NCBI GenBank assembly: GCA_048938445.1
Contig: JBHLME010000009.1
Span: forward strand, 1-58,974
Reading direction: 5' to 3'
DNA: 58,974 nucleotides
DNA from: Promethearchaeota archaeon
Lineage (GTDB): Archaea; Asgardarchaeota; Lokiarchaeia; Sigyniarchaeales; SOKP01
Shown here piece by piece: positions 20,644-23,014 of this stretch (positions are counted from its first letter, which is position 1; every line of letters starts with the position of its first letter). The position numbers were made by a program, and so were the translations under genes. The notes beneath the pieces are model-generated. The model saw nothing but the letters and a program-made list of their open reading frames with translations, did not search any database and was not told the DNA's origin.

Positions 20644-20888
20644 TCAATAAATTAGAAATATTATTTTTCTTAAAATTATCCTTATATTCTCTTGAATCTT
20701 TTATATGTCAAAAAATTTTTGGTTATAAACCTCAAGTATTACAATAAAAATTTTTGCTAAATTCACTTTAGAGCCTTATTTACCTAACTGAATTATATTT
20801 TTTGTTTCAATAAACTAAAAAGGTGGATCGTTACAAAAATATTTAAATATGAAACGTTGCATATATATCATAATACAAAATAATTGAG

Positions 20889-22421
20889 GTGATATTTCAA
20901 AAAATGAAAAGGTCTGATGATGAAATTATCGCTACTATTACGACGAAAGTTAAGGAAAAATTAGATTTTGAACAGATTGCTAATAACCATGCTGAAGTAT
21001 TTTATAATCCTACAAAATTTCCGGGATTGGCCATTCAAATCGAAAATCCAAAAGCAACTGTAGTATTATATTCCACTAAAAAAATTGTTATTGCAGGACT
21101 TATGCAAATATCAGAAGTCGATCAAGTCGTAGAAAAAATAAAAAAAATATTACGTGAAGAAGGAATTGAATTAACAGACCCTGAGATCCATATTGAAAAT
21201 TTAAAACCAATTATATTAAAAATCTGTCTTTTAGGTGACAAGGGTGTTGGAAAGACTACATTAATGAACCATTTTTTAGAAGATTCAAAAAATCGTAAAT
21301 TCCAAGATAAAAAAGAAATAATTGGTGTAAATTTTTTCGAGACGACAACTACTGATATTGAAGGGAGAAAAGTCATAATGCAATTATGGAATATAATTGA
21401 TAATGAGAAATTTAAAAATATTCAACGACATTATCTCAAAGGAGCAAAAGCAGGAATCATTGTATATGATATAACAAATAAATCCAGTTTTAAGAGTATT
21501 GATGATTATATTTCCATGTTTAGGAAATCGAAAAGAAATCGAGATTTACCAATCATTTTAATTGGAAATAAAATCGATTTGAAAGATAACAGAGAAATTA
21601 TCAATACTCAAGGGTCTCAAATGGCCATAACGAGAAAATTGGCAGGTTATTTTGAATGCTCTGCAACAGATGCAAAAGGAGTAAAAAAAATATTTGATTT
21701 AATATCTCAAACTTTATTTCGTGGAGTATATTTGAACACTATTTCAAAAGCATTAGAAAATGAGCTTACTCTAAGAATCCTTATCAATTTAAACATGTTT
21801 AAAGAATTGAGTTTAAGTGAACTTTCGAAACACGTGCACAAAAGTAAAGCAACATTATCTCGTCATACAAGGAAATTGATCAAGTTGGGTCTTATTGAAA
21901 CCACCATTAAGGACATAAAACCTCAAGCAGGTACGATTAATAAACAATATTATTCTTTAAAGAAAGAGTTAAGTTATCATCTTGGAAAGGAGCATTTCAA
22001 TTTTATTAACATGAAATCTAAGGTAAAATGGGAGACTTTTAATGAGTTCTATATTAAAAAATTGTTTACCTTCAACTCAATCAATTTAATATCAAAAAGA
22101 CTAAATGATATGGTATTAGATTTTAGCAATAAAATTTTTACAGGATACCCGCCATTAGTTAAAGAGTTTGGAAAGTATTTAGAACACTTACCTATAAATA
22201 TGCATTATTTAAACGAGAAACAATATAAAAAGGTACAAGTACTTATAGGAGATTTTAATTTGAATTTAAATAAAATTCTGGCTGAAGATGATGCTTCAAC
22301 GAAATGTTACTTACTAGCGAATATGATCCTTCCAATTATAGACACCATTAACCTCTTTGACAAACCTAACATGTTTTATCAAATAGTTTTGAGACGCCAA
22401 TTGAAAAAACAAGAAAAATGA
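20889..22421 (+). CDS. fusion: single TBP repeat + Rab-like small GTPase (degenerate G2/G3) + ArsR-like wHTH + helical C-terminus
   Basis: YNPTKFPGL..IENPKATVVLYSTKKIVIAG (TBP); GDKGVGKT, NKID, ECSA (GTPase); LRILINL...LSLSELSKHVHKSKATLSRHTRKLIKLGLI (wHTH). Confidence 0.85.
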   Translation: MIFQKMKRSDDEIIATITTKVKEKLDFEQIANNHAEVFYNPTKFPGLAIQIENPKATVVLYSTKKIVIAGLMQISEVDQVVEKIKKILREEGIELTDPEIHIENLKPIILKICLLGDKGVGKTTLMNHFLEDSKNRKFQDKKEIIGVNFFETTTTDIEGRKVIMQLWNIIDNEKFKNIQRHYLKGAKAGIIVYDITNKSSFKSIDDYISMFRKSKRNRDLPIILIGNKIDLKDNREIINTQGSQMAITRKLAGYFECSATDAKGVKKIFDLISQTLFRGVYLNTISKALENELTLRILINLNMFKELSLSELSKHVHKSKATLSRHTRKLIKLGLIETTIKDIKPQAGTINKQYYSLKKELSYHLGKEHFNFINMKSKVKWETFNEFYIKKLFTFNSINLISKRLNDMVLDFSNKIFTGYPPLVKEFGKYLEHLPINMHYLNEKQYKKVQVLIGDFNLNLNKILAEDDASTKCYLLANMILPIIDTINLFDKPNMFYQIVLRRQLKKQEK

Positions 22422-22576: not shown

Positions 22577-23014
22577 TTGAAGTGTCTAGTTTTAAGTCAT
22601 TTTAACAGTACAATCGGACCTAAGATTATCAAGAAGGTTGGTGATGAAATTTTAAAAGACCATCTAGAAGAAATCTTAGGATATATAGACTATCATGAAA
22701 AGGGTTATTTTATTCACGAATTCAAGGAGATTAAATCTGCAAACATGATTTTTTCTGTGAAAAGTCCCATTGCTAGGGGGAGTAAAGAAAAAATAATGAT
22801 ATCCGTTGTTTTAATAGGTGATGAGACCGATCCAAGGAGATATTACCATCTCTTAGAACTATTTGTAAAAAAATTCAAACAAATAAAGGATGTTTATCAA
22901 GGTTTTTACTTAACTGAAGATAATAATTCCATTGCTCAAGAATATTTAATAAAAATGGAAAAATTAATGTTTGAAATTTATAAAAAATTTCCTTTAAAAT
23001 CAATTGTTATCTGA
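22577..23014 (+). CDS. uDENN/longin-like domain protein
   Basis: LVLSHFNSTIGPKI matches the F-x4-GP start of uDENN/NPRL2-like longins; ARG motif; 145 aa alpha/beta. Confidence 0.55.
   Translation: MKCLVLSHFNSTIGPKIIKKVGDEILKDHLEEILGYIDYHEKGYFIHEFKEIKSANMIFSVKSPIARGSKEKIMISVVLIGDETDPRRYYHLLELFVKKFKQIKDVYQGFYLTEDNNSIAQEYLIKMEKLMFEIYKKFPLKSIVI

Follow-up and report, generated by a model that had tools for sequence, protein, structure and literature searches.

The gene at positions 20904–22421 of the forward strand of a 58,974-nt stretch of DNA from a Promethearchaeota archaeon (contig JBHLME010000009.1; hereafter 'the window') encodes 505 amino acids and a stop, and its product has four parts: the N-lobe of a TATA-binding protein (TBP), a Rab-like G domain, an ArsR/Phr-like winged helix–turn–helix (wHTH) domain and a C-terminal helical domain. 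The explanation of the whole that we favour, with a probability of about 0.55, is that of a homodimeric, self-repressing wHTH regulator with a G domain in front and an auxiliary TBP lobe. The product would be a probably self-repressing regulator of Phr/ArsR type, a member of an Asgard family that is confined to one lineage and whose proteins carry a Rab-like G domain ahead of the wHTH. Two copies are predicted to pair by their C-terminal helical domains, and the paired wHTH domains would bind a dyad, ATGAAACGTTGCAT, which is conserved directly after the TATA box. The G domain would serve for allosteric input or for docking, with one long modelled helix linking it to the wHTH. In one subfamily, the organism's own TBP N-lobe, ending shortly after the start of strand S1′ in the second repeat, would have been added N-terminally as an auxiliary minor-groove module, able to reach the adjacent TATA box and compete there with genuine TBP, and probably unable to nucleate a pre-initiation complex. 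The gene probably ties a nucleotide-binding domain to the control of its own promoter.

The small GTPases of Asgard archaea tend to be interpreted as marks of eukaryote-like membrane trafficking; in the present case a whole family of them is joined to a DNA-binding regulator, and a branch of these G-domain regulators appears to have captured half of the cell's TBP. In the archaea most closely related to eukaryotes, this gives a testable and concrete connection from G-domain signalling to the control of promoters, and the conserved operator beside the TATA box is an immediate DNA target for experiments. A natural single-lobe TBP in a dimeric protein also bears on whether TBP began as a one-repeat homodimer. 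No mention of a TBP–GTPase or GTPase–wHTH fusion was found in literature searches or in the available text of PMC11188069, PMC10933270, 10.1101/2020.10.19.343400 and PMC3597702, and supplementary tables of Asgard domain architectures may list it; as far as this literature extends, a wHTH regulator that has both a G domain and a captured TBP lobe has not been found in print and appears to be new.

Gene, homologues and wider family

The open reading frame (ORF) that the initial annotation placed at 20889–22421 (+) is confirmed as real, although the true start codon and the C-terminal helical domain of ∼140 aa had been overlooked. The GTG at 20889 was rejected as the start in favour of the ATG at 20904: the Met that matches this ATG in the family alignment is the first residue in all nine full-length homologues, and the GTG falls within a Shine–Dalgarno-like sequence, GAGGTGAT (20886–20893, +), 10 nt upstream of the ATG. 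The GGTGAT of that site is kept in three of four orthologues and reads GGTGGA in the fourth (L019). The same 505-aa protein is already on record (P0002). Pfam matches, with residues numbered from the GTG at 20889, were obtained to TBP (PF00352; E 1.4e-13, 50.9 bits against a cut-off of 22.9, aa 17–90; 54.6 bits in a scan of the genome), to Ras (PF00071; E 8.5e-36, aa 111–275) and to the ArsR-type HTH_5 (E 4.8e-7, 30.0 bits against a cut-off of 22, aa 296–337). A monomer model made with AlphaFold2 (AF2) from a 28-row alignment had a pLDDT of 79.2 and a pTM of 0.63, the latter giving only moderate confidence in the packing of the domains. As to RNA, only two Rfam matches were found in or before the gene, both far under their gathering scores, and a scan for sigma-70 promoters and terminators, which is not relevant to archaea, did not rise above shuffled sequence (17 matches vs 13.0 expected).

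A word-indexed protein search returned 17 proteins; nine, drawn from JGI, ENA, Logan and NCBI and 54–80% identical, are full-length and share the architecture of the window protein. Among 135 genomes of the taxonomic family, searched with the N-terminal part as query and with the best 30 candidates per genome scored, the fusion occurs in at least five (G000, G002, G162, G267, G349), which is a lower bound; matches run past the junction in G000, G267, G349 and G162, that in G002 is cut by a contig edge, and the rest are ordinary TBPs. The gene always lies between a divergent Elp3 gene and PyrK–PyrD–Nop56. The possibility of an assembly chimera or a unique singleton, against which the initial annotation had asked for a check, was rejected in view of the nine full-length homologues, the at least five genomes and the conserved synteny. 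With Pfam matches above threshold, conservation and purifying selection (see below), the fusion of TBP repeat, Rab-like domain and wHTH that had been proposed is real.

Two observations concern the neighbouring genes. The ORF of 145 aa downstream of the fusion (22577–23014) was rejected as a conserved partner: it matches no Pfam family and bears no similarity to the ORF in the corresponding position of L014. Elp3 is a single ORF in the window and in L013, and in L014 (3532–5197) it appears to be split into two, of 157 aa (ELP3_N) and 385 aa (radical-SAM + GNAT).

An exhaustive search gave 39,305 matches at E ≤0.001, nearly all of them GTPases, and 34 at E ≤1e-30, while the ESM Atlas returned generic GTPase clusters only (scores ≤0.80). 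A word-based search with the TBP part alone returned just the window protein and two close relatives, and so gives no view of other TBP fusions. The wider family consists of proteins of ∼400 aa with a G domain, a wHTH and the C-terminal domain. In one branch a further, degenerate G domain is present N-terminally (P0012, P0013), in another a C-terminal receiver domain (PF00072; P0016, P0017, P0022), and some relatives are the wHTH and C-terminal module alone, in open frames of 209–246 aa. Among 301 genomes sampled from the phylum, 14 yielded this module, and these all come from a single order (12 of 68 in family f1, 1 of 7 in family f2, plus G000). Judged by these sequences, the TBP lobe is one among several accessory modules put on a G-domain regulator. 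A further paralogue match, L011 (G017:C184), has one in-frame TAG and may be a pseudogene, a sequencing error or a case of a recoded stop.

The TBP lobe and the G domain

The TBP part (20925–21158, +; 20934–21158 in the genome scan) is a single repeat of the N-lobe type, with the elements S1-H1-S2-S3-S4-S5-H2, and the AF2 model reproduces their order (E8–15, H22–28, E32–34, E41–47, E50–56, E60–66, H69–85). It matches the solved archaeal TBP 1mp9 with an E of 1.4e-20, is 44–49% identical to canonical TBPs of related genomes and aligns colinearly with the first repeat of all three two-repeat TBPs encoded in this genome. This closeness in sequence marks it as a true TBP lobe, beyond a mere TBP-like fold. 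Two tandem TBP repeats were not found in the chain, which has one PF00352 stretch and then the G domain, and the NCBIfam whole-protein TBP models (PRK00394) gave at most 58.8 bits against cut-offs of 181 to 347. Nor does the genome encode a free-standing TBP of one repeat that might serve as a partner; its seven PF00352 matches are accounted for by the three two-repeat TBPs and the TBP lobe.

The fusion junction (21159–21203, +) comprises the inter-repeat linker and a remnant of strand S1′, GIELTDPEIHIEN, which aligns with GMQLTGKPKIQIQNI of 1mp9 and also with NPxITIQN of the genome's own TBPs; over the start of S1′ the TBP match pairs PEIHIEN with PKIQIQN. In the AF2 model the remnant forms an extra strand, 91–99, followed by the GTPase strand at 103–111; β1 and the P-loop of the G domain begin three residues past the S1′ match. 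Because the match runs through the linker into S1′ and the G domain follows after three residues, the protein looks like the product of a TBP gene severed a little way into its second repeat and then fused to a G-domain regulator that already existed.

Such an event could have left a lobe that is neutral or decaying, the leftover of a lineage-specific fusion accident in a protein that works like its lobe-less paralogues. The narrow spread of the fusion (at least five of 135 family genomes) and the alteration of several canonical TBP residues in the window's clade would fit this, but the pattern of divergence would not. Between L013 and L014, dN/dS was 0.31 for the TBP part, similar to the 0.20 of the G domain, with 0.09 for the wHTH and 0.18 for the C-terminal domain, values that are rough in a genome of 30% GC. 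When the clades are compared, lobe, G domain and C-terminal domain each show 51% identity (70% for the wHTH), which makes the lobe as slow-evolving as the G domain. The five genomic copies of the fusion are free of stops and frameshifts, and P98, E99, I100 and E103 at the junction are invariant in 10/10 homologues. A mere leftover is very improbable; the dN/dS of 0.31 points to a lobe under purifying selection.

The residues of the lobe are consistent with contact to DNA. The Phe of FPG (F44) is invariant (10/10), and at the second of the paired positions that we take, from TBP–TATA structures, to intercalate in each repeat, Tyr stands in the window's clade (3/10 sequences) and Phe in the remaining 7/10; the first Phe kept and the second replaced by Tyr, as initially described, is thus the state of that clade. 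At the positions that we presume to contact the minor groove (Asn in S1, Arg after S3, both Phe and the Thr of VTG), seven of the ten members equal the genome's own TBPs. We consider an auxiliary TATA-contacting module the most likely role of the lobe. Its stirrup, YNPxKF, is of the N-lobe type, with an invariant Asn at the first position and Glu at the second in 4/10, and lacks the acidic Glu pair of the C-lobe type, which in our own mapping falls on the E-P-E of the stirrup.

Alternatively, the lobe could bind protein rather than DNA, as a decoy or adaptor for canonical TBP, TFB or a small-GTPase partner, in the manner of adaptin appendages. At the presumed concave-face contacts, however, the seven members just mentioned match the genome's TBPs, for which DNA binding is the simplest explanation, even though several canonical DNA-contact residues are gone in the window's clade. 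TBP-fold domains do bind proteins in adaptins and COPG (PMC3597702, PMC11188069), but these domains resemble the lobe in fold only, whereas the lobe is close to TBP in sequence. A hint of a GTPase–TBP link comes from a canonical small-GTPase gene found immediately upstream of a TBP gene, both here and in 8/8 of the related genomes picked. On balance we regard a protein-binding lobe as unlikely, if worth keeping in mind.

The gene pair just mentioned is found on contig C75 (L002), where a canonical small GTPase (2291–2821, −) lies directly upstream of a canonical TBP on the same strand (1441–2061, −). The pair was traced by tblastn in the window's genome and in all eight of the related genomes (L020–L027, three genera), which were hand-picked from the TBP matches of the 135-genome search. 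The GTPase has G1, G2 and G3 intact and is separated from TBP by ∼230 nt in L002 and by roughly 300 nt elsewhere; across the pairs, identity is 64–70% for the GTPase and 73–77% for TBP. With 33% identity to the fused G domain, the C75 GTPase was rejected as a special relative of it. A third TBP paralogue, of 267 aa, on contig C98 (L005, 961–1764) has an N-terminal extension of ∼85 aa without an obvious match and is flanked by MarR-like genes.

The G domain (21204–21728, +) has Rab7 as its best match (E 1.4e-26) and degenerate switches. G1 (GDKGVGKT, 21234–21257), G4 (NKID, 21567–21578) and G5 (SAT, 21660–21668), all on the forward strand like the rest of the gene, are intact, while the equivalents of G2 (IIGVNF, 21318–21335) and G3 (WNIIDNEKF, 21387–21413) depart from the TIGADF and WDTAGQERF of Rab7. 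Within the family alignment, G116, K122, N227, K228, D230, S258 and A259 of G1, G4 and G5 are invariant in 10/10; in the same ten members the switch-I Thr position is Ile, Lys or Leu and [ND]-I-I-D replaces D-T-A-G. Alignments with Rab7 and within the family bear out the motif assignments of the initial annotation. Across the whole wider family G3 is degenerate, and the G2 Thr is retained in some members only. Since G1, G4 and G5 are invariant under purifying selection, binding of guanine nucleotide is expected, whereas loss of the Thr and of the DxxG-Gln in 10/10 argues against a classical switch and intrinsic hydrolysis. Most likely, then, the domain binds nucleotide without a classical switch, in keeping with the earlier notion of a non-switching G domain: the nucleotide motifs are kept and both γ-phosphate sensors are lost. 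In the AF2 model the last helix of the G domain runs on into the wHTH as a single helix (aa 257–285), a continuity that would permit allosteric coupling between the two domains.

Predicted dimerization and the candidate operator

The wHTH (21741–21983, +) is identified by the HTH_5 match and by its likeness to Phr of Pyrococcus furiosus (2p4w), to which VIA aligned 77 aa with a Z of 13.9, an rmsd of 1.3 Å and 32% identity. ArsR/SmtB chains gave Z of 10.2–13.2 against the modelled wHTH, and PH1932 was matched too. Its recognition helix, KSKATLSRHT, is nearly invariant in the wider family, with K315, S319, R320 and T322 invariant in 20 sequences. The C-terminal helical domain (21996–22418, +; aa ∼365–505), seen as helices in the AF2 model, matched no Pfam family. 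A separate model of aa 280–510 had a pLDDT of 83.3 and a pTM of 0.77, and with the wHTH and the helices together Foldseek found 4g6q (E 2.6e-4, 202 columns) and 2p4w (E 3.2e-4, 187 columns). In these models the resemblance to solved regulators is secure over the wHTH but only loose over the helices. The NCBIfam metalloregulator model gave 25.3 bits against a cut-off of 55, and the Phr heat-shock model NF053602 gave 15.6 against 320; the likeness to Phr is structural only.

Prediction of a homodimer gave ipSAE values of 0.61, 0.66 and 0.66 against 0.00 for the best of three controls, with at least 59% of contacts agreeing between runs and a partner pLDDT of at least 66. The mark for a dimer was reached by 20/30 proteins solved as same-chain pairs and by 1/23 solved as single chains, counts that hold only roughly here, where our own alignment was fed to the prediction. 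All confident contacts fall within aa 370–499 of both copies. The model therefore supports a homodimer, paired through the C-terminal domain; this pass may in part reflect resemblance to solved ArsR/Phr wHTH dimers. Dimerization as such, which the initial annotation had foreseen, finds support here, but the predicted interface is not the wHTH through which it was thought to form.

Upstream of the gene, the 12-bp AT-only palindrome ATATTTAAATAT (20839–20850) noted in the initial annotation is present, is identical in 4/4 orthologous promoters and is likely the TATA box. It occurs once in the window against 0.14 expected (at least one match in 12 of 100 shuffles) and 31 times in the 4.63-Mb genome (29.6% GC), making it a common TATA-like word. 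The dyad ATGAAACGTTGCAT (20849–20862), which we propose as the wHTH operator, is the core of a 24-nt imperfect palindrome (20844–20867), for which a repeat search found 15-nt arms with 87% complementarity. Both elements fall within a block, AAATATTTAAATATG.AA.GTT.CATATA, that is kept in all four orthologous promoters (window, L013, L014 and L019) despite a synonymous divergence (dS) of at least 1.0 between clades. The candidate operator comes after the TATA box and ahead of the point at which transcription is expected to begin, which is the usual position for archaeal repressors such as Phr. Phr itself recognizes a palindrome and represses (PMC10746257). A 29-mer of the block has no second copy in the genome at ≤5 mismatches, and ATGNAACGTTNCAT at the promoter is the sole intergenic exact copy, the other exact match (C83) being inside an ORF. 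In a search for a regulon, with the C26 match left out, looser TGNAACGTTNCA matches in C10 and C176 likewise fell within ORFs.

The lobe-less paralogues indicate which domain reads this site. From 15 loci examined, one duplicate and one unreliable start were removed, leaving 13 usable genes; AACGTT occurs within 200 nt upstream of six, all of them among the nine with a G domain, and of none of the four stand-alone forms. The background is 0.027 per 200 nt, and AAACGTTRC occurs 12 times in the 4.63 Mb. The dyads with an AACGTT core before the lobe-less paralogues (L029, L031, L035, L032, L034, L030) include TGAAACGTTACA, TGAAACGTTGCA and TGCAACGTTGCG. Three paralogues repeat the layout of TATA followed by ATGAAACGTTACAT; in three the dyad comes directly after the TATA-like ATATTTATATAT, with a partial second copy, AGCGTTGCAT, on its other side. 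Because lobe-less paralogues share the layout and the recognition helix is nearly invariant, the operator is best assigned to the wHTH, and the pattern points to autoregulation via the wHTH as its simplest reading. Targeting to specific operators by a saddle of TBP lobes, as initially envisaged, finds no support in view of the same TATA and AACGTT layout before paralogues without a lobe, which puts targeting with the wHTH. In the 200 nt before one stand-alone wHTH and C-terminal relative (L036, G007:C101), several repeated CGAA-n-TTCG-like words (among them ACGAATGTTC, CGAACATTCG and CGAACTTTCG) are found, which may be a different operator for that branch.

The saddle itself, in which the two lobes of the dimer would close into a two-fold structure on the palindromic TATA and yield a basal factor under control of the G domain, deserves separate consideration. 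The lobe is a genuine TBP N-lobe with the identity to canonical TBPs given above, both Phe positions are Phe in 7/10 members, and a dimer is predicted; a perfect 12-bp AT palindrome kept in 4/4 orthologous promoters would suit a symmetric binder, and the genome, as noted, lacks a stand-alone single-repeat partner. Against this, the S1′ remnant and the G domain, joined by a three-residue turn in the model, occupy what we take, from topology rather than from coordinates, to be the edge where the second lobe docks in TBP. The window's clade is altered at four presumed DNA-contact positions, the 12-mer is common, and the promoter layout recurs where no lobe is present. The stirrup, moreover, is without the C-lobe Glu pair that is reported to contact TFB/TFIIB (PMC7221094). 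The dimer model names no confident contacts between TBP lobes, between G domains or between wHTH domains, and speaks neither for nor against a saddle. Nothing shows the two-repeat saddle suggested in the initial annotation, the S1′ remnant leading straight into the G domain, and we judge it decidedly unlikely.

Still a little more doubtful, in our estimate, is a related arrangement in which the dimer sets its two TBP N-lobes on symmetric AT-rich DNA as a natural 'split' two-fold TBP, its promoter occupancy set by the nucleotide state or the partners of the G domain. The lobes might sit on the conserved palindromic TATA box or, alternatively, on the AT arms found at either side of the wHTH operator. 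If this were true, the protein would be a present-day model for the ancestral TBP that has been proposed, a homodimer of single repeats, and, taken with the conserved GTPase–TBP gene pair, would mean that some of the expanded Asgard small GTPases control basal transcription, not membrane traffic.

Several points weigh against the self-repressing regulator with an auxiliary lobe that we prefer. AACGTT is missing upstream of three of the nine G-domain paralogues and of all four stand-alone wHTH relatives, and L029, L031 and L035 are mutual orthologues, so that the six cases make up about four independent groups; the operator is assigned from conservation. In the window's clade (3/10), four of the presumed DNA contacts of the lobe are altered (N→E/Q, R→Q, F→Y, T→A), and the lobe of this copy may bind DNA weakly or differently. 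The lost Gly of G3 could weaken nucleotide binding too. To these are added the roughness of the dN/dS values and the moderate confidence in domain packing.

Comparison with known systems

Each part of the protein has known counterparts. For the G domain these are the Rab7-like and Asgard Rab-like GTPases, with which it shares intact G1, G4 and G5, and from which it differs in the loss of the G2 Thr and the G3 DxxG-Gln in 10/10 members and in being joined to DNA-binding domains; since it is internal, a C-terminal lipid anchor is impossible. PseudoGTPases likewise combine the GTPase fold with degenerate catalytic or switch motifs and are used for interactions, but their class i binds no nucleotide (PMC12490416), whereas the invariant G1, G4 and G5 of the window's family lead us to expect nucleotide binding.

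The regulatory half is closest to Phr (2p4w) and PH1932 (1uly, 2cwe), in which an ArsR-type wHTH is followed by long C-terminal helices as here. Phr differs in having neither G domain nor TBP lobe, and the C-terminal helices align poorly (rmsd of 17 Å in Foldseek).

With archaeal TBPs (1mp9, 1pcz and the three of this genome) the N-lobe, the linker and the start of S1′ are homologous, and the FPG stirrup is conserved, as is the first Phe position, the second being Phe in 7/10 members; unlike them, the window protein has one lobe, is without the C-lobe or its TFB-contacting Glu pair, and is fused to other domains. Single TBP domains that apparently function alone are known as monopartite TBP-domain proteins, namely halobacterial TbpA and a euryarchaeal single-domain group, which differ in being small stand-alone proteins (PMC3597702); in the available text of that paper the words 'GTPase' and 'Ras' do not occur. 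The best analogue for the way in which a lone lobe might function is given by the N-domains of RNase HIII and of DNA glycosylases, where one nucleic-acid-binding module of TBP fold is likewise set within a multidomain protein (PMC3597702, PMC4132731). Those domains share the fold only and are fused to enzymes, whereas the lobe in the window is close to TBP in sequence and is fused to a regulator.

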